This document shows, one piece after another, positions 53,593 through 64,000 of a DNA stretch of 64,000 bases. The translations under genes were made by a program, and so were the position numbers. The stretch is taken from assembly GCA_044220955.1 (NCBI GenBank), contig JBGAQA010000001.1, forward strand, positions 158,777 through 222,776, written 5' to 3'. The DNA comes from Sandaracinaceae bacterium (GTDB lineage Bacteria > Myxococcota_A > Polyangia > Polyangiales > Sandaracinaceae). Under the pieces are notes generated by a model that did not search any database, was not told where the DNA came from, and saw only the letters and a list, made by a program, of their open reading frames with translations. Position 1 is the first letter of the stretch. Each line of letters starts with the position of its first letter.

Positions 53593-54065
53593 CGCACGAC
53601 CGAGGCTGCTCGATCCGAGCAGGCCGCGACGTGGGCGGCGTCTGCGACGCGGAGCTGACCACGAAGCTGCTCCGCAGCTTCGCGAGGGCGAGGGGCCAGC
53701 CCCTCGCGCACCCCATCCCGACTCGGTCACGTTCCCCGAGTCTCGCGGCGCTGGCGGGTGCGCGAGGGCGGAGCCATCGCCTCTCACGAATGCGCGGAGC
53801 GCGTTCGTGTGTGGAGGTGTCGAAGACGCCTTGGACAACCAAAGGCCGCCGGGCGGATCGAGGGTAGCGGCGCGGGGCCGGTGCGCCCGTTGTTGAGCGT
53901 CCGAGGACACCGCCGTTCGTGTCCGACGGAGCGAAGCAACGGGGGTACCGGCCCCGCGACGCGGCCAGCACACCCCTCGCTCGCCGCGATCGAAACGCTC
54001 CGGTCCGGGCACCGGCGGCGGCCCCCCTTGCGCGCTCGCCCGATCGCGTGAGACACGATCGACGC

Positions 54066-55892
54066 GTGACGAGCCCGTCCACGATGATCCTCGAGGAGCT
54101 CCTCGACGCCGGGGACCCTCGCTTCTGGGACGAGCTCACGAAGATCCGCGAGCCCCGCGCGACGCGGCCCGCCGCGCGCGGCGGCCATGCGGTGCCGCTC
54201 CCCGCGGGCGAGAAGCTCCCGCGCTCCACGCTCACCTCGTTCGCCGACAAGTGGATCGCGAACACGAGCCCCTTCGCGCGCCGCATGCTGATCCGATACG
54301 TCGACGAGGCGTGCGACCGCCGCGGCCAGCGCCCGCTGGTGCGCCGGATCGTGCAGCGCGCGGAAGAGAAGAACGATCGGGAGCTGCTCGCGCACCTGCT
54401 GGTCGCGTTCGACCGGCTCGTCACGTTCCACAAGCGCCGGCGCTACGACTACGCGACGCGCCAGATGATCCACGTCGTCGTCCGCGCGCGCACGAGCGAG
54501 CGCGCGCTGCGGCGCGCCGGCGAAGAGTGGCCCTTCCCCCTCGTGTTCTCCGGGCGCACGCGGAGCTACCTGCGCCGCCGCGTGCTGCGGGCGTTCCGGG
54601 CGAGCGGCCACCGCGAGCCGGAGCGCTACCTGCGCGAGATCCTCGACGTGCTCGGCCTCTACGAAGACAAGCACCTCGACGCGCCCGAGAAGCTCGTGGC
54701 GAGCTGGTCGCTGCTGCGCATCTTGCACGCGCACTCCCCCGTGCTCGCGAACGACGGCCGGAGGATCGCGGTGCGCGTCGGCCGCCAGCTCGCCGAGCTG
54801 ACACCCGCGCCCATGCACCCCGACGCGTGGAAGGCGGGCTTCGAGCCGATCTTCGCCGCCATGCCGAAGATGCGGGCGCTCTTCGTGCGCCGCCAGATCG
54901 CGCTCCACCTCAAGGCGGTGCACCAGGACGCGCTCGTGGCCCTGCCGCTCGAGCGCCTGCGCCCGCTCCTGCGCTCGCAGCACCCCGACCTCGCGAGCCT
55001 GGGCGCCGAGCTGCTCGCCACGAGCAAGGGCGCCGAGACGATGCCGGTCGCCGAGTGGCTCGCGCTCGCCGAGGTCGACGACCCGACGGCCCTCTCCGCG
55101 ATCGCCGACCGGATGGAGAAGGTGGTCGCACCGGGTCGCGTCACGCTCGCCGACGTCGTGCGCCTCGTGCGCAGCAAGCACGCGCGCATCGCCGACCTCG
55201 GGGTGTTGCTCCTCAAGGAGAAGCGCGCGACCAAGCCGGAGGAGCTCACCGCCGCGATGGCGATGGTCGACGCTCCGATCGCGACGGCCCGCACCGGCGC
55301 GCTCGCTTGGCTCGTGCCTGCGATCGAGGACACCAAGCTCGGCACGGACACCCACGTGCGGGACTTGCTCGACGCCCGATTCGAAGACGCGCGCGCGTCC
55401 GCGCTCGCGCTGATCGAGAAGAGCGAGCGCTTCCGCGACGCGGCGATGCTCTGGCAGGCGCTCTCGGAGTCGCCCTACGACGACGCGCGCGCGTTCCTGC
55501 TCCGCCACCTCGACGCGCGGGCGGCCGCGCTCACGCCGGAGAGCCTCGCACGGCTCTGGGCCACGACGCTGCTCGCGGTCCATCGAGGCAGCCGGAGCAA
55601 GCAGCGCGCGCTCGTGACGATCGGCACGCGGCTGGGCGAGAGGCCCGAGGAAGCCGCGTCGCTGCTCGCGCTCCTCGCGCTGGCGCTCCGCTCCGTCCGG
55701 GAGCCCGAGCGGCGCGGCGGCATCGCGGCCGCGATCCAGGCGGCGGCACGCGTGCCCGGCCTCCGTGAAAAGATCGCCAGCGCGATCCCCGAGCTCTCGG
55801 CGTCGTTCCACCCCAGCCTCGAGCTCCCCGCGCCGCGCGCGCCGCGTGCGCTCGGGACCAAGACCGCCCTCCCGAAGACGGGGACGCCGTGA
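54066..55892 (+). CDS. HEAT/ARM-like helical repeat protein (retron-associated)
   Basis: Leu/Ala-rich helical repeats (LLRS...DL...G, LLDARF.DAR, LSESPYDDAR); GTGA overlap with SWIM gene; start 54066 or 54084. Confidence 0.7.
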   Translation: MTSPSTMILEELLDAGDPRFWDELTKIREPRATRPAARGGHAVPLPAGEKLPRSTLTSFADKWIANTSPFARRMLIRYVDEACDRRGQRPLVRRIVQRAEEKNDRELLAHLLVAFDRLVTFHKRRRYDYATRQMIHVVVRARTSERALRRAGEEWPFPLVFSGRTRSYLRRRVLRAFRASGHREPERYLREILDVLGLYEDKHLDAPEKLVASWSLLRILHAHSPVLANDGRRIAVRVGRQLAELTPAPMHPDAWKAGFEPIFAAMPKMRALFVRRQIALHLKAVHQDALVALPLERLRPLLRSQHPDLASLGAELLATSKGAETMPVAEWLALAEVDDPTALSAIADRMEKVVAPGRVTLADVVRLVRSKHARIADLGVLLLKEKRATKPEELTAAMAMVDAPIATARTGALAWLVPAIEDTKLGTDTHVRDLLDARFEDARASALALIEKSERFRDAAMLWQALSESPYDDARAFLLRHLDARAAALTPESLARLWATTLLAVHRGSRSKQRALVTIGTRLGERPEEAASLLALLALALRSVREPERRGGIAAAIQAAARVPGLREKIASAIPELSASFHPSLELPAPRAPRALGTKTALPKTGTP

Positions 55893-57610
55893 GGTACGAC
55901 CTGCGCTACCTCGGGCACTCCGCCGTCGAGCAAGGGCCCTACCGCGCGAGCGTGAAGTTCGTGCCGAACCTCTCGCGCGAGCGGGTCTGGTTCGACGGCG
56001 AGCTGCTGGATCCGCTGCGCTACCGGGAGGCGATGAGCGCGCTGCACGACGTGGTCGTCGGAGATCTGCGCTTCAAGAAGAAGGACAAGACCGCGTACCT
56101 CGCGTGGAAGGCCCAGGCGCAGGCGGCCGAGCAGCAGCTGCGCGCGCAGCTGCTCGACAAGGAGAAGCGGCGCGTCCTCGAGGCGCAGTCCAAGGAGGTG
56201 CCGCCGCCGAACCTCGACCGCGACTTCCGGCACTGGCACTCGATCTACTGGAAGGCGCGCGTGCAGTGGGCGAACGAGCTCGCGCGCGACGACCCGCAGC
56301 TCTTCCGCTCGCTCGTGCCCTGCGATCCGGTCGTGACCGTGGCGGACGACGTCGTGTTCTTCGAGTGCTTCTCGAAGGACGAGTCGAGCTACGCGGCGCT
56401 CTTCGTCGAGCGCGGCGCCTTCAAGGGAGCGCAGGAGGCGGCGCTCGGCACCACGAACGTCGACTACTCGATCGCGCTCTACGAGCACTTCCAGGGGCTG
56501 CGCACCTACCGCCCGACGCGCCTCGCCGTCGACCCGGCGGGCTTCGAGGTGAAGGTCGAGTCGCGCGAGGACTACCGCGAGGAGAAGATCGATCTGCCCG
56601 CCTCGTGGCTGCGCGGCTTCGGTCAGATCTCGGCGGCGGCGAGCGTGGTCGGGCTCGAGCAGCGACGCGGCGGCGAGACGAGCCGGCGGATCGATCTCGA
56701 CGTGCCCGCGGTGTACTCGCTCCTGGCCTACCTGAAGCGGCACCGCGAGAAGAGCGGACCGCGCTCACTCCGCTTCGAGCTGCGCCGCGGAAAGCCGGTC
56801 GCGATCGTGATCGAGCCCTTCGGCACGCGCATCGAGTCGCACGGCGCGCCCTACGAGGGAGCGCGCGACGAGGACGTCAAGGTCTGGGGCCGGCGGCGGC
56901 TCTCCGTGCTCGCCCGCGTGCTGCCGCTGGCCGAGCGCTTCGAGGTGATGCTCCTCGGCTCGGGCATGCCGAGCATCTGGATCGCGAAGATGGGCGACAT
57001 GCGCCTCGTGCTCGCGCTCTCCGGCTGGACGACCAACACCTTCACGAGCGGCACGAACCTCGATCTGCTGCTCGGCGAGGTGCAACCGGCGGCGGGCGTC
57101 CCCGAGCGCGTGCAGGCGCACCTCCGGAGCAAGCGCACCGACACGCTCGGGGGGATCTCCGCGGCGCTCGCCGCGAGCGAGAAGGACGTGGCGCCGGCGC
57201 TGCACCGGCTCAGCCAGCGCGGGCAGATCGTGTTCGACTTCGACCGCGGCGCGTACCGCTTCCGGCAGGTGGTGGAGGAGCGCGACGGCGCAGAGATGCT
57301 CGGGCCCGAGTCGCCGGAGCTCACGGCCGCGCGGAAGCTGCTCGTCGAGCACAAGGTGAAGGTCGAGCGGCAGGACGCGCTCCCGCAGAACAAGCGGTAC
57401 ATCGCGGCGAGCATCTCGGGCGACAAGACGGAGGCCGTGTTCGACGGCGACGGCCAGTACTCGCGGGCGAAGTGCACGTGCCAGCTCTTCAAGCACTTCG
57501 CGCTGCGGCGTGGGCCCTGCCGGCACCTCCTGGCGCTGCGCTGGACCGTGAGCGGCGGGGCCGAGATTCGTGTGGCGGCGGGGAGCCTCGGTGGAGGATT
57601 CTTCGGATGA
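55889..57610 (+). CDS. SWIM zinc-finger protein (retron-associated)
   Basis: C-terminal CTC...GPCRHLLAL; DPVVTV....FFECFSKDESSY; EEKIDLPASWLRGF; wHTH-like segment before SWIM. Confidence 0.85.
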   Translation: MRYDLRYLGHSAVEQGPYRASVKFVPNLSRERVWFDGELLDPLRYREAMSALHDVVVGDLRFKKKDKTAYLAWKAQAQAAEQQLRAQLLDKEKRRVLEAQSKEVPPPNLDRDFRHWHSIYWKARVQWANELARDDPQLFRSLVPCDPVVTVADDVVFFECFSKDESSYAALFVERGAFKGAQEAALGTTNVDYSIALYEHFQGLRTYRPTRLAVDPAGFEVKVESREDYREEKIDLPASWLRGFGQISAAASVVGLEQRRGGETSRRIDLDVPAVYSLLAYLKRHREKSGPRSLRFELRRGKPVAIVIEPFGTRIESHGAPYEGARDEDVKVWGRRRLSVLARVLPLAERFEVMLLGSGMPSIWIAKMGDMRLVLALSGWTTNTFTSGTNLDLLLGEVQPAAGVPERVQAHLRSKRTDTLGGISAALAASEKDVAPALHRLSQRGQIVFDFDRGAYRFRQVVEERDGAEMLGPESPELTAARKLLVEHKVKVERQDALPQNKRYIAASISGDKTEAVFDGDGQYSRAKCTCQLFKHFALRRGPCRHLLALRWTVSGGAEIRVAAGSLGGGFFG

Positions 57611-57641
57611 AACGAAAGGAGACGAGCCAGAGCGGAGCGAT

Positions 57642-57990
57642 CGGTCGCGAAGAGAGAGAGGTCCGCGTGGAAGCCGGGCGTCCCGAGGACGCCGTGGGCT
57701 GGAGTGACCGCCGTCGGCGGGCCGACACGATCGTGTCGGCTCGGCTTCGCCGAGCGCTCCGGCCCGAGATCGAGCCCATCATGCTGCGGCGCTACGCCGT
57801 GGCGGAGCCTGGCCTTCCATGCAACCCCACGCCCGATGTTCTTTTTGGCGATCCACCACTGGTGTGTCGCCACGGAGGGCAACACCGAGGGTTTGGCGAG
57901 CACACCAGTGGTGGATCGCCATCGGTGATCGGACGTGGTCCAAGGATCGAAGTCGACGGCCCCACGCGGCCCTCTCTCTCTTTCCGACCG
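57642..57990 (+). ncRNA. Retron msr-msd non-coding RNA (predicted)
   Basis: a1/a2-type inverted repeat 57642-57670 / 57962-57990 (26 of 29 match), short hairpins, then a long hairpin 57846-57921; upstream of a retron RT. Confidence 0.85.
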
Positions 57991-58229
57991 GGCCGATACG
58001 CGGCCCGCCCCGTCCGGCGGAGCGGGCCCGGGGCCCCACCCTCGTTCCGCTTGTTCGCTGCGCTCGCTGCGTCCGCTGCGTCGCTGCGCTCCTTCGCTCC
58101 CTGCGCTCCCTCCGCTCGGCGCGGGGGAGCGGGGTCGAGACGAGCGCTCGCGTCGTGGTCCCCGGCACCGGTGCATCTCTCGGAGGACGTGTCCGGCTCC
58201 GTTCGGCTCGCAGCCCTGGAGCGTCGGCC

Positions 58230-60146
58230 GTGAGCTGGTGGAAGAAGGTCGTCGACTTCTTCGCCGGGACGACGCCCGACGCGCCGGACGTGCCGCAGGG
58301 GACGCCGCTCGAGACCGCCGTGTGGCGCGCGATGCGGGCGCACGTCGACGCGGGCACGAGCTTCACCGCGGCCGCCGTGGCCGAGACCGCCACGCGCGGG
58401 ATGAGCCCGCGACCCACCGTCGACGCGATCAAGGTTGCCAACGATCTGTTCCACCGCGGGCTGCTCGAGCCGCACGGCTACACGCGAACGATGGCGGCGA
58501 CGGCCAGCGGGCCGGCGTGGGTCTACCACCACACGAGCTCGCCGCCGCAGGGCGGCGTGCCCACGACGGCCAAGCCGCTCGGTCCGCGCCTCGTCGGCGG
58601 CGCCACGCCGACACCCGCGGCCGCACCCCGCGCGACCGCGGCCGCGACTCCTGGGCGCAGCGCACCCGCCGCCGCGACCACGAAGGCCCCGGCACCGAAG
58701 GACCCCTACGACGTCGGCGCGCTCCTCTCGCTCACCAAGGACGAGCTGCGCGCGCGCGCGCTGAAGATCATCCCCTGGAAGACCGCGTGGATCGGCCGCA
58801 CCGACGTCATCCCGCCCGACAGCGACGAGCGCACGGCGCTGATCGATCGCGGCCTCGAGCTGCGAGGCCTGCTGACGCGCGCGCAGATCTCGGAGATCCA
58901 CCGCGTCGGTGACCTCTGGCTGAAGCACAAGGACTCGGCGCGCCTCGCCGAGACCCTCGCGAAGAAGAACGTCGAGGAGGCGATCGCCCAGCAGCGCATC
59001 GCCAAGCAGCTCGAGAAGGAGAAGCGGAAGGAAGCCGCCCGCGCGAAGGAGGCCGCGCGCGTGGAGGGCGTCGCCAGGCGCAAGCGCGAGGACATCGTGC
59101 ACCTCGGACGCGGCGTCTCGTTCGGCCTCGCGGACCGGCGCTCGCACGTCGAGCGCCTGAAGGAGCTCGGCCTCCCGATGCTCTCGACGCCTGCCGACGT
59201 GGCGCAGGCGCTCGGCATCACGATCCCGCAGCTGCGCTTCCTCTGCTTCCACTCCGACGCCGCGCGGCGCTCGCACTACGTCCGCTTCGAGGTCCCCAAG
59301 CGCTCGGGCGGCACGCGCCTGCTCGCCGCGCCGATGCCGCACCTCGCGCGGGCGCAGGAGTGGGTCCTCGACAACGTGCTCGGCAAGCTGCCGGTGGAGC
59401 CCCCCGCGCACGGCTTCGTGAAGGGACGCTCCACGGTCACCAACGCACGCCCGCACGCCGGGCGCGCCATCGTCGTGAACCAGGATCTCGTCGACTTCTT
59501 CCCGACGATCACGTTCGGCCGCGTCCGCGGCGTGTTCGTGCGCGCCGGCTACTCGCCCGCGGTCGCCACGATCTTCGCGCTGCTCACCACGGAGAGCCCA
59601 CGCCAGGAGGCGACGTACGCCGGGACCAAGTACTTCGTCGCGCTCGGCCCGCGCGCGCTGCCGCAGGGCGCGTGCACGAGCCCCGCGCTCTCGAACCAGA
59701 TCGCGCGCAAGCTCGACCGGCGCCTCAACGGCCTCGCGAACAAGCACGGCTGGCGCTACACGCGCTATGCGGACGACCTCTCCTTCTCCGCGCTCGAGGA
59801 CCGCGTGGACGACGTGCCGCGCCTGCTCGCGCGCCTGCGCCACGTCGTGGGCGAGGAGGGCTTCACGCTCCACATCGCCAAGGGGCGCGTCCAGCGCGCG
59901 GCGCGCAGGCAGACGGTCACGGGCATCGTCGTGAACGAGGCGCACAAGCTCGCCGTGCCGCGCGAGGAGGTGCGCAAGCTCCGCGCCATCCTCCACAACG
60001 CGAAGAAGACCGGCCTCGCGGCCCAGAACCGCGACGGCCGCCCGAATTTCGAGGCCTGGCTGCGCGGCAAGATCGCGTACGTGACCATGGTCGACCGCGC
60101 CCGCGGCGAGCAGCTGAAGCGCGCGCTCGATGCGCTGGCTCGCTGA
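58230..60146 (+). CDS. Retron-type reverse transcriptase with long N-terminal extension
   Basis: PKRSGG.R, AHGF..GRS..TNARPH (region X NAxxH), DL.DFFPTI, LPQGACTSP.LSN, YTRYADDL, QTVTGIVVN (region Y VTG); GGAG before GTG 58230. Confidence 0.93.
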   Translation: MSWWKKVVDFFAGTTPDAPDVPQGTPLETAVWRAMRAHVDAGTSFTAAAVAETATRGMSPRPTVDAIKVANDLFHRGLLEPHGYTRTMAATASGPAWVYHHTSSPPQGGVPTTAKPLGPRLVGGATPTPAAAPRATAAATPGRSAPAAATTKAPAPKDPYDVGALLSLTKDELRARALKIIPWKTAWIGRTDVIPPDSDERTALIDRGLELRGLLTRAQISEIHRVGDLWLKHKDSARLAETLAKKNVEEAIAQQRIAKQLEKEKRKEAARAKEAARVEGVARRKREDIVHLGRGVSFGLADRRSHVERLKELGLPMLSTPADVAQALGITIPQLRFLCFHSDAARRSHYVRFEVPKRSGGTRLLAAPMPHLARAQEWVLDNVLGKLPVEPPAHGFVKGRSTVTNARPHAGRAIVVNQDLVDFFPTITFGRVRGVFVRAGYSPAVATIFALLTTESPRQEATYAGTKYFVALGPRALPQGACTSPALSNQIARKLDRRLNGLANKHGWRYTRYADDLSFSALEDRVDDVPRLLARLRHVVGEEGFTLHIAKGRVQRAARRQTVTGIVVNEAHKLAVPREEVRKLRAILHNAKKTGLAAQNRDGRPNFEAWLRGKIAYVTMVDRARGEQLKRALDALAR

Positions 60147-60167
60147 GCGCGTAGACTGCCCGGCACG

Positions 60168-61154
60168 ATGGACCACACGTTTCTGGGAGGCACGGGCGTC
60201 AAGGTCTCGCGCCTCGCGCTCGGCACGATGACCTTCGGCGGCGACGCCGACCTCGAGACCTCGCGGGCGATCTACCGGCGCGCGCGCGAGGCGGGCATCG
60301 ACCACGTCGACACCGCGGACGTCTACAACAAGGGACGCACCGAGGAGATCGTCGGCGAGCTCGTCGGCCCGGAGCGCGATCGCATCGTCCTCGCGACCAA
60401 GGCGTACTTCCCGGCGGGCGCGGGGCCCAACGATCGCGGCTCGAGCCGCTACCACCTCGTGCGCAGCCTCGAGGGGAGCCTGAAGCGGCTGCGCACCGAC
60501 CGCGTGGACCTCTTCTACCTGCATCGCTTCGACGAGCGCACCGATCTCGAGGAGTCGCTCCGCGCGCTCGATCACCTCGTCGCGCGCGGGCTCGTGCTCT
60601 ACCCGGCCGTGAGCAACTTCGCGGCGTGGCAGGTCACGAAGGCGCTCGGCGTGTCGGCGCTGCACGGCCTCGCGAAGCTCGTGGCCATCCAGCCGATGTA
60701 CAACCTCGCCAAGCGCACGGCCGAGATCGAGCTCTTGCCGATGGCGGCGAGCGAGCGGATCGCGGTGTTCCCGTACTCGCCGCTCGGCGGGGGCCTCTTC
60801 AGCGGCAAGTACCGCGCGTCCGAGAAGCCCTCGGGCACGCGCATCGCCGACTGGCCGCTCTACCGGCACCGCTACGGCGACAAGCTCGAGCTCGCCGAGC
60901 GCTTCGCGGCGCTCGCGGCCGAGGCGGGCGTGCACCCGGCGACGCTCGCGGTCGCGTGGGTGATGAGCCACCCGGCCGTCACGGCCCCGATCCTCGGCGC
61001 ACGCAGCGTCGCGCAGCTCGAGCCCTCGCTCGCCGCCGCCGACTACCAGCTGGACCCGGCGCTCCGCGCGCGCATCTCCGCGCTGGTCCCCGAGCCCCCG
61101 CCGGCGACCGACCGCAACGAAGAGGGCGTGATCGAGGGGCTGGGCGCCCGATGA
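60168..61154 (+). CDS. Aldo/keto reductase
   Basis: VSRLALGTMTFG, DTADVY, LATK, DLFYLH, SNF, QPMYNL, YSPLGGG. Confidence 0.92.
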   Translation: MDHTFLGGTGVKVSRLALGTMTFGGDADLETSRAIYRRAREAGIDHVDTADVYNKGRTEEIVGELVGPERDRIVLATKAYFPAGAGPNDRGSSRYHLVRSLEGSLKRLRTDRVDLFYLHRFDERTDLEESLRALDHLVARGLVLYPAVSNFAAWQVTKALGVSALHGLAKLVAIQPMYNLAKRTAEIELLPMAASERIAVFPYSPLGGGLFSGKYRASEKPSGTRIADWPLYRHRYGDKLELAERFAALAAEAGVHPATLAVAWVMSHPAVTAPILGARSVAQLEPSLAAADYQLDPALRARISALVPEPPPATDRNEEGVIEGLGAR

Positions 61155-62338
61155 GCGAGAGCGGAAGCGAGGCGATGAAGCGGATCGCCGCGGAGTGCGG
61201 GCTCGACCCGAGCTTTCCCGACGCGGTGATGGCCGAGGTGCGCGAGCGCGCGGCGCGCGTGCGCATGGACGATCCCGCGCTGCCCAGCCTCGAGCACCTG
61301 CCCTTCGTGACGATCGACGGGCCGACCTCGAAGGATCTCGATCAGGCGCTCCACGTCGCGTGCGGCGAGCGAGGCCGGCCCTTCACGGTGCGCTACGCGC
61401 TCGCAGCCGCGGCCGACTTCGTCCAGCCGGGCTCGGCGCTCTTCGAGGAAGCGCTGAAGCGCGGCGCGAGCTTCTATCTCCCGGGCTTCTCCGTGCCGAT
61501 GCTGCCGCGCGAGCTCAGCGAGGGGATCATCTCGCTGAACGAGAAGGTCGTCCGGCGCGCGCTCGTGTTCGTGATCGACCTCGACGACGAGGGCCGCATC
61601 CTCGAGACGCGCGTCGAGCGCGCGCGCATCCGGAGCCGCCGCAAGCTCGCCTGGGGCGAGGTGCAGCGGCTCTACGACGGCGCGCCGAGCGATCTGCGCG
61701 GGACCGACCTCGAGCCCTCGCTGCTGGCGCTCCGCGAGGTGGGCAAGCGGCGCGTGGCGGACGCCGCGGCGCGCGACGTGGTGCGCTACCACCGCCGCGA
61801 GGTGCTGGTCGAGATCGATCGAGACGGGCTCGGCGTGTCGGTGGTCGAGGCCGTGCGCGACGAGGTCGAGCTCTACAACGAGCAGATCTCGCTGCTCGTG
61901 AACTCCGAGGGCGGCCGCCTGCTGCGCGAGCAGCCCTCGCCGGCGGTGCAGCCCATCTACCGCATCCACCCCGGGCCCGATCCCGAGCGGATGGCCGCGC
62001 TGCGCAAGATGATCGACGCGGTCGTCGATGCGCACGGCCTGCCTGACGACCCGTTCCGGTTCCGCGAAGGCGAGAGCCTCGCCGCCTACGTCCGCGCACT
62101 GCCGCAGTCGGGGCCGCACGTGCGCGTGGCACGGGCACTCGAGCGCCAGAGCCTGCTCGTGAGCCTGCGCTCGTCGTACGCGAGCGAGCCCGGGGTTCAC
62201 TTCGGTGTCGGGGCCGAGCCCTACGCGCGCTTCTCGGCGCCGATGCGCGAGGTCGTCGGCATCTTCCTCCACCGCCAGATGCAGCAGGTGCTCGCTGGCG
62301 ACACGGCGAGCGAGCGATCCACCGTTCCTTGCGCGTAA
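61151..62338 (+). CDS. RNB-domain (RNase II/R-like) protein, probably 3'-truncated
   Basis: FVTIDG..SKDLDQAL, RG.S.YLP, PMLP.ELS, HFG.....YARFSAPMR; stops ~25 codons after that motif. Confidence 0.75.
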   Translation: MSESGSEAMKRIAAECGLDPSFPDAVMAEVRERAARVRMDDPALPSLEHLPFVTIDGPTSKDLDQALHVACGERGRPFTVRYALAAAADFVQPGSALFEEALKRGASFYLPGFSVPMLPRELSEGIISLNEKVVRRALVFVIDLDDEGRILETRVERARIRSRRKLAWGEVQRLYDGAPSDLRGTDLEPSLLALREVGKRRVADAAARDVVRYHRREVLVEIDRDGLGVSVVEAVRDEVELYNEQISLLVNSEGGRLLREQPSPAVQPIYRIHPGPDPERMAALRKMIDAVVDAHGLPDDPFRFREGESLAAYVRALPQSGPHVRVARALERQSLLVSLRSSYASEPGVHFGVGAEPYARFSAPMREVVGIFLHRQMQQVLAGDTASERSTVPCA

Positions 62339-62370
62339 CGGCGCCCGCGAGGTCCAGAAGGCGGTCGCGA

Positions 62371-62697
62371 TCAGGATCTGGTGCTCGCGCCTCCCTCGCC
62401 GGACGGGACCGCGCGAGGACCGCATAGGCCTTGAGGCTCGCAGCCGTAAGCTCGATCTTTGGCATCCGAGCGCCGAGGGCTGCGGCGCGCCGCTCGCCCG
62501 AGCCGCGCGTGAAGCTCGGTCTCGAACTCGTAGAAGTCGCGCGCGCCCGTCTTGCCGGTCACCGCGTGATCTTCGAGGAACTTCCGCACGCCGTCGAGCA
62601 CGCGATCGTGGAACGAACGCTGCGTCTCGCTCATGCGGAGCGCGCGAGAAACCTCGGGACGAATGGAGCGAACGATGGAGGTGCTGGTCATGCCCAC
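62371..62697 (-). pseudogene. Possible transposase N-terminal remnant
   Basis: DFYEFETELHARL recalls ISKra4-type N-termini; frame degenerates straight after. Confidence 0.35.
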
Positions 62698-63650
62698 GTC
62701 AACACGCGGCTCTCAGCGGAATTCCCTCGATTCGTCGCGTCAGGATCGGATCTACACCGTGAGCTGAGAGAAGGCCTGCCTCGGAGAACGCAAGGAATTC
62801 GAGTGAACTCTCGGCACGTCGAGCACGAGCTAGGCTGCAGGCCGCATCGAGGTAGGTCATGAGTTAACGTAGTCGCAGCCGATTCCGCTCGCCGTAGGCC
62901 ACACAATGACCTCGGTCGGCGTGATCGACGGGTAGGTGCTGCAGACCTCCATCACGTCGGTCGACCTGCACCTCCGTGCTGCGCGGACGACGTGCTCGCG
63001 TCCCAGATCCAGTGGTCAGTCCCGAGAGCTCAATACGCCGGTCGACCTGGGCCCGCTTTGCGCCGCGCTGGATCCGCGTGGGCGACCGTCTCGTGGATCT
63101 CCAGCGGACGCCACCTTCTGCCGAGCAACTTCGGAACGGCACCGTGTTCAAGGACAGGCCGCCACGCAACGCGGCGCGCTCTCTCCCTCAGGCCGCATGC
63201 AGAGGGGCGTGGCGCCGGAGCATCCCCACTCCGTCGGGCGTCCGGGAGGCGTCTCCGTGCCGCAGATGCAGTACGTGCGCGCCCCGTCGACTCCCGAGCC
63301 TCACGCCGGACGAGGTCCACCGCGGCGCGACGAAGCCGAGCGGCACGCGAGGTCGCGTGACGTACTTCGACGGCCGCATGCGCTGGTACCACTTCGGGTA
63401 GCGCGAGGCGCCGGACAGGATGTGCGTCCGGCGCCTCGTTCATTGAAAACACGGGCGACCTCCTCTCCTTCGCCTCGCGCGGATCGGGCCGCGCTCGTTC
63501 TGCATCAAGCTCCGGTCGTCGCGAACGACCCCGTCTCGACCGCTCGCGCCGCGCGAACGAACGCGACGACAGCACATGGAGCCGCCACCCTCAACTTGCA
63601 GCAGACCTCGGGACTACGCCGCTCCGCGCGGCACGCGCGGCCGCATTACC

Positions 63651-64000
63651 GGTTCTCCGACAGGTTTCGTGGGCGTCGCATGCGTGGCCTGACCTCCGGG
63701 ACGAGCTTCGTGGCCGAGGGATTCGCGTGAGGGCGAGGAGCGTGTGACGCGGGAGAAGATGCGCACGACCCGCGGTACGGTTTGGTTCTCTACGCCAACC
63801 GGAACGAGGTGCCGTGCGCGCCACGAGTTTACTCCGACTGCTGTCACGCTTGGGTCCCCAGCACACGGTCGTCGCCGGGTTCGCGATGGACGCGCCCCGG
63901 AAGGCGCTCGTGCTCGACGTGCGGCCGACGACTCGCACGCCCCTCTGCGGCAGCTGCTTCCGGCGGTGCCCGCAGGGCTACGACCATCGACTTCGCGAGT
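63651..64000 (+). mobile_element. ISL3-family insertion sequence, left end (runs off window)
   Basis: Candidate terminal IR GGTTCTCCGACAGGTTTCGTGGG at 63651, followed by a transposase start. Confidence 0.7.
63814..64000 (+). CDS. ISL3 transposase N-terminus (partial)
   Basis: My translation from GTG 63814: MRATSLLRLLSRLGPQHTVVAGFAMDAPRKALVLDVRPTTRTPLCGSCFRRCPQGYDHRLRE; CxxC...YD.R zinc-finger start; GAGGT RBS. Confidence 0.75.
   Translation, partial: MRATSLLRLLSRLGPQHTVVAGFAMDAPRKALVLDVRPTTRTPLCGSCFRRCPQGYDHRLRE

Follow-up and report, generated by a model that had tools for sequence, protein, structure and literature searches.

A type XIII retron RNA from a Sandaracinaceae genome with an apparent host repeat in its a1 arm

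Genes and class of the retron

The window, the whole 64,000-nt stretch of Sandaracinaceae DNA that was analysed, carries a retron in the order HEAT/ARM gene, SWIM gene, non-coding RNA (ncRNA) and reverse transcriptase (RT) gene, all three genes being intact and matching PADLOC type XIII models. The genes, and a repeat that follows the ncRNA, are:

54066..55892, + strand: HEAT/ARM-repeat protein of type XIII retrons, 608 aa from a GTG start placed by the codon model; PADLOC HEAT-ARM_XIII, E = 3.7e-134
55889..57610, + strand: SWIM zinc-finger protein, the primary partner in type XIII, 573 aa; PADLOC SWIM_XIII, E = 3.8e-167; Pfam SWIM
57990..58129, + strand: second dispersed repeat, unrelated to the cruciform repeat described below, between the ncRNA and the RT gene; five other near-full copies in the genome
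58230..60146, + strand: retron RT, 638 aa, frame intact; PADLOC RT_XIII, E = 7.2e-157; NARPH, YADD and VTG motifs

The class of the RT is assigned by profile score, its top PADLOC model (RT_XIII) giving 521 bits against 357 for the runner-up model. In the SWIM protein, a motif search placed a C-terminal CxCx12CxH finger at residue 529, and the first part of the DEDE pattern, which was searched alone, matched at residues 90 and 146. This is the type XIII gene set of Mestre et al., whose group, in the accessible part of that paper, includes Mx162, Mx65, Sa163 and Ne144 and is considered probably vertically inherited and possibly domesticated, with no mechanism given there (PMC7736814). These type XIII (clade 10) retrons share the RT, SWIM and HEAT/ARM gene models found here; the system in the window is of this already known type, and the RNA between the SWIM gene (55889-57610) and the RT gene (58230-60146) is its msr-msd. 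An Rfam scan of 54000-64000 placed no family over the ncRNA or its insert and gave one chance-level match elsewhere, and a promoter and terminator scan of 57400-58300 found neither. The repeat family at 57990-58129 begins where the a2 arm of the ncRNA ends, and its five other copies, 81-85% identical, lie between called genes.

The conserved RNA and its predicted priming site

The arms, the conserved hairpin and the predicted copied segment of the ncRNA are as follows:

57642..57676, + strand: distal part of the a1 arm, pairing with 57957-57990
57770..57773, + strand: proximal part of the a1 arm (TCGA), with its conserved partner at 57953-57956, from the covariance-model alignment
57774, + strand: predicted priming (branch) G in a GAGC context, aligned with a G that is invariant in 20/20 orthologues and immediately follows their a1/a2 helix
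57783..57803, + strand: conserved msr hairpin, 9 bp with a 3-nt loop; 99.4% of cells paired in 20 orthologues
57814..57952, − strand: predicted reverse-transcribed segment (msd), about 139 nt, its start taken from the a2 border
57953..57990, + strand: a2 arm, pairing with a1

The sequence-only reading had recognized a retron msr-msd with long a1/a2 arms, and that identification stands: 57642-57670 and 57962-57990 are 90% complementary over 29 nt, type XIII genes lie alongside, and the 371-nt region folds with z = −10.1 against 100 shuffles. Several stems that it had listed were recovered, with 21 of 21 pairs in the msd stem (57846-57866/57901-57921), a pair probability of about 1.0 for the hairpin at 57677-57693 and of 0.92-1.0 for the stem 57696-57706/57755-57765; the hairpin that it gave as 57787-57799 is present and extends to 57783-57803, where it is likely to serve as the RT recognition stem. 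The palindrome at 57721-57740 is present as sequence, inside the cruciform repeat; for 57696-57765 the proposed three-hairpin (cruciform) form is 0.6 kcal/mol less stable than a rod form, and both are possible. A pairing of 57668-57679 with 57807-57819, which had been thought to compete with a1/a2, can form but is no real competitor, because it costs 10.6 kcal/mol and none of its pairs reached a probability of 0.01.

Conservation was assessed on the orthologous ncRNAs of 20 other genomes, whose RTs are 59-73% identical; L085 (cut at the locus edge) and L034-L040 (apparent duplicates with the same HMM scores) were left out. In their consensus fold 91% of cells are paired and 41 of 62 pairs are changed on both sides, against 38-47% paired in a slid-partner control, although the structure was derived from the same 20 sequences, which favours these support figures. 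The a1/a2 helix covaries (21 of 24 pairs changed on both sides), the CGA/TCG helix is invariant in 20/20, and the computed a1/a2 pairing begins at the base before the conserved G in 19 of the 20, the exception (L087) having its 3' anchor three bases off. Automatic a1/a2 lengths (234-319 nt) come out too long wherever fortuitous pairs prolong the helix, and the comparison therefore relies on the size of the loop and the length of the core: the largest a1 loop is at most 5 nt in the orthologues versus 93 nt in the window, and the core from the G to a2 measures 168-197 nt versus 178 nt in the window.

A covariance model built from the 20 orthologues, with the window excluded, matches only positions 57771-57956 of the window (153 bits, model positions 30-215). 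Among 14 metagenome pattern matches, 12 fit this model end to end at 238-245 nt (two of these are identical, and the remaining two of the 14 are unrelated DNA). With 57677-57769 removed in silico, the helix runs without a break to G57774 (P 0.88-1.0) and the a1-a2 span is 256 nt, similar to that of the relatives and near the 241 nt reported for Mx162.

This alignment makes G57774 the most likely branch G, in place of the G57673 first suggested, because its CGAG context, like the GTCG that opens a2, shows no variation in 20/20 orthologues. G57774 is predicted to be unpaired (P = 0.83); G57673 pairs with C57960 (P = 1.0) and has no conserved counterpart in the orthologue alignment. In validated retrons the priming G directly follows the a1/a2 stem in an AGC-type context, and Mx65 is listed with the same GAGC context as the window (both from PMC6868368). 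The GAGAGGTCCG..AGCC context that had pointed to G57673 is not diagnostic because it is common, with seven occurrences in this genome and matches in 184 of 401 genomes of the phylum. With the branch G placed at G57774, the msr proper is short, a single conserved 9-bp hairpin with a 3-nt loop, and in a test of msr-msd features this hairpin and the one long msd stem fall within the canonical range of one to three msr hairpins. The additional branches, which had been counted as msr, lie 5' of the conserved priming G and inside a1.

The predicted msd would include a basal stem near 57829-57839/57928-57938 and the long stem 57846-57921, and both of its ends (57814-57952) coincide with those of an orphan msd copy in a relative, G023, which supports them independently. 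That copy (L057:1397-1533, − strand, contig C2) is identical to G023's own msd at 137 of 138 bases, begins at CTTCC and stops a single base short of the a2 TCG. Next to it is an ORF whose translation, judged by eye, resembles an IS110 transposase; the copy is located about 90 nt after the stop of this ORF and about 47 nt beyond the end shared by other copies of this IS110-like element. An empty site for it was not found, and the sequence on its right belongs to a low-copy repeat; it is possibly a genomic integration of msDNA, or else a library chimera.

Further variation was seen around related retrons. The ncRNAs of more distant RTs (L020, L027, L028 and L096; 48-52% identical) score 41-54 bits on the covariance model and, by sequence, form a related subfamily beside the 20-orthologue family, and several genomes hold two related retron RTs. 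The ncRNAs of G007 and G023 carry an extra hairpin of about 20 nt within the msr, 3' of the priming G (L010:695-720, and the equivalent site in L011), which is a true, small msr expansion. Tandem 11-nt repeats with CGACTGGCA lie between the ncRNA and the RT start, directly 3' of a2, in L012, L013, L014 and L037, and CGCT-rich repeats resembling the 57990-58129 family sit upstream of the ncRNA in L012-L014.

Origin of the additional domain

In the window the a1 arm is interrupted by about 93 nt (57677-57769), within which two elements were delimited:

57677..57693, + strand: 7-bp hairpin, part of the insert; pattern CCGG-N0-2-GCGTCC-N2-12-GGACGC, with ten other matches in the genome
57696..57765, + strand: cruciform dispersed repeat in a1 (a terminal stem closing three hairpins), from a genome HMM search with a reversed-genome control

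Used as a query against the genome, the ncRNA finds matches on other contigs for its portion at about 57690-57775 alone. A repeat HMM seeded on seven other copies, with the window copy left out, detected 24 non-overlapping loci (the window and 23 others) at a cut-off of E ≤ 0.01, the window copy scoring 4e-14, and returned 0 matches in the reversed genome at the same settings. With a simple codon-model gene caller, by which 93% of the genome is coding, 19 of the 24 loci fall between genes. The repeat has a CCGGAG...CTCCGG terminal stem, often flanked by GATC, that closes two arm hairpins and a central palindrome. The GAGATC that follows the cruciform in the window (57766-57771) matches the right end in the copies of congeners, with the right border uncertain by about 5 nt; the left GATC end of many other copies is absent. 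The hairpin at 57677-57693 is probably a truncated arm of the same family, judging by its sequence; six of the ten other matches to its pattern fall inside repeat copies, and partial tandem copies of the cruciform were seen (L079). GCCG occurs at 57673 and 57691, although the whole copy is not bracketed by these and no clear target-site duplication was found. On these comparisons, we take the extra domain to be a repeat dispersed through the host genome.

The repeat is restricted in its distribution, being carried by four of five congeners (5-33 matches each) and, as one or two weak matches each, by two of 26 other genomes of the family; its HMM matched 0/20 orthologous ncRNAs, and 0/12 metagenome relatives carry it. 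The four repeat-bearing congeners (completeness 81-97%) gave no match to the ncRNA core, the RT or the SWIM protein, and thus the repeat exists without this retron. Families of the REP, REPIN and MITE kinds consist of short elements in many copies, most of them between genes, which are confined to particular lineages and strongly structured, with terminal inverted repeats. The repeat in the window shares these traits but differs in its cruciform shape with a central palindrome and in having no copy near either Y1 transposase gene of the genome, no clear target-site duplication and no Rfam match. The search for a mobilizing enzyme gave two Y1_Tnp-family genes in this genome (88% complete), neither with a repeat copy nearby: L061 (G000:C77:64182-64868), which is flanked by an inverted-repeat pair unrelated to the cruciform repeat, and L062 (G000:C231:59179-60018). 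Six congener stretches with clustered copies hold ordinary genes, with no transposase recognized by eye among the printed ORFs. A cognate RAYT transposase gene bordered by copies, as in REP/REPIN families, was not found in this search.

The insert is not an assembly error, because contigs from three of three DNA runs, belonging to three studies, bridge both of its junctions with few differences, one of these runs being possibly the source sample. One metatranscriptome contig spans 57687-57968 at a depth of 10.6, with the flanks of the ncRNA outside contig cover; it hints weakly at transcription of the repeat together with the ncRNA, as contigs of the RNA run carry no information on strand, start or level and may partly derive from DNA. 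In one contig of run X2, about ten differences and four small gaps fall in 57611-57644, just upstream of a1, against one change within 57645-57990, so the ncRNA with its insert appears more conserved between strains than the preceding spacer. An empty-site allele was sought in congeners, where no orthologue was found, among the 14 metagenome matches and, as a joint across the insert, in the contigs of four runs (contigs drop rare variants), and none was found; because the allele was not seen in the same species or genus, the ancestral state is taken from the orthologues at 59-73% RT identity, with borders uncertain by a few bases.

The description of this RNA as unusually large and multi-branched therefore holds for its stems, which are real, and fails for the expanded msr, since about 93 nt are an insert in a1. 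An evolved, expanded msr, primed at G57673 and using its extra hairpins as a scaffold for the SWIM and HEAT proteins, would be in keeping with hairpins that are stable, with the position of G57673 within AGC and with the presence of the insert in strains from three studies, but we consider it highly improbable because G57673 is paired and not conserved, the motif cited for it is common, and the hairpins, for which a lack of conservation had been named beforehand as a refuting outcome, belong to a genome-wide repeat and are absent from all 20 orthologues and all 12 metagenome relatives. Nothing supports a scaffold role for the insert. The opposite direction of transfer, in which the repeats stem from the retron and were copied out by its RT, has been proposed for the repeats of Nannocystis exedens, and for Retron-Nex1 PMC6868368 reports msr/msd duplicates that lack an RT; the orphan msd copy of G023 also fits such a process. 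Retron-Nex1 is, like the present case, a retron that shares sequence with a dispersed repeat in a myxobacterial genome, but there the repeats copy the msr/msd, whereas the repeat of the window is located upstream of the priming G, beyond the copied template, and has apparently moved into the retron. Since the repeat is also abundant in congeners where the retron was not found, the window copy is without the left GATC end of many others and the msd has no second copy in this genome, we regard the retron as a source of these repeats as scarcely credible.

Effect of the insert on priming

We consider it very probable that this RNA is an ordinary type XIII ncRNA, about 256 nt long, with a host repeat of about 93 nt interrupting its a1 arm, the insert being most likely a tolerated passenger. 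The repeat would have entered a1 4 bp from the priming G, as one whole cruciform copy and a probable truncated arm. By analogy with retron biochemistry, a1/a2 pairing would set G57774 beside the template start near G57952; the RT would prime from the 2'-OH of G57774, forming a 2'-5' branch, copy about 139 nt and stop near 57814, and the resulting RT-msDNA complex would partner the SWIM and HEAT proteins. The insert would fold on itself and loop out of a1, outside the copied segment, and may be trimmed together with the 5' leader; in retrons, sequence upstream of the priming G is often removed, according to PMC6868368. In its a1/a2 arms, short msr hairpin and long msd stem the window ncRNA is canonical for type XIII retrons, from which it differs by the 93-nt repeat-derived insert, with a predicted msDNA of about 139 nt.

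We caution that a repeat of the same origin might nevertheless cripple or alter the retron, an effect on function that we hold to be unlikely but deserving of serious weight. The break in a1/a2 comes four pairs away from the priming G, and with the insert in place the conserved proximal helix has P = 0.02, while a register shifted by 6 nt, pairing with an upstream TCGA (57947-57950), is favoured at P 0.79-0.88; little msDNA, or msDNA about 6 nt shorter, would follow. Retron Eco1 tolerates little change around the priming G and beside a2, as described in PMC11257497. However, the energy gap between the two registers is just 2.1 kcal/mol and several orthologues fold poorly in the same test, three of the 20 giving equally low values for the proximal helix; moreover, the three genes are intact, the core scores 153 bits on the covariance model, and the insert is found in three studies and in one contig of an RNA run. 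A retron that stays active and puts the insert to use, whether by shifting the priming register and the msDNA 5' end or by handing the RNA to a host protein that binds the repeat, seems improbable; if true, a mobile repeat would have rewired the priming junction of a retron in nature.

In the literature covered, from which most subscription papers are absent and to which supplements listing an ncRNA family could add, no report of a repeat insertion into a retron RNA was found. Under the favoured interpretation of a passenger repeat, a false lead is removed, in that the extra size of this RNA would not reflect a novel scaffold, and the priming G moves to another position. The orphan msd copy of G023 is relevant to the question of whether msDNA can return to the genome. 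The alignment of 20 sequences delimits a type XIII ncRNA family that covaries well and for which msDNA ends are predicted, and if the retron of the window is active, its a1 arm accepts about 90 nt of structured cargo beside the priming site, which would be relevant to retron engineering.
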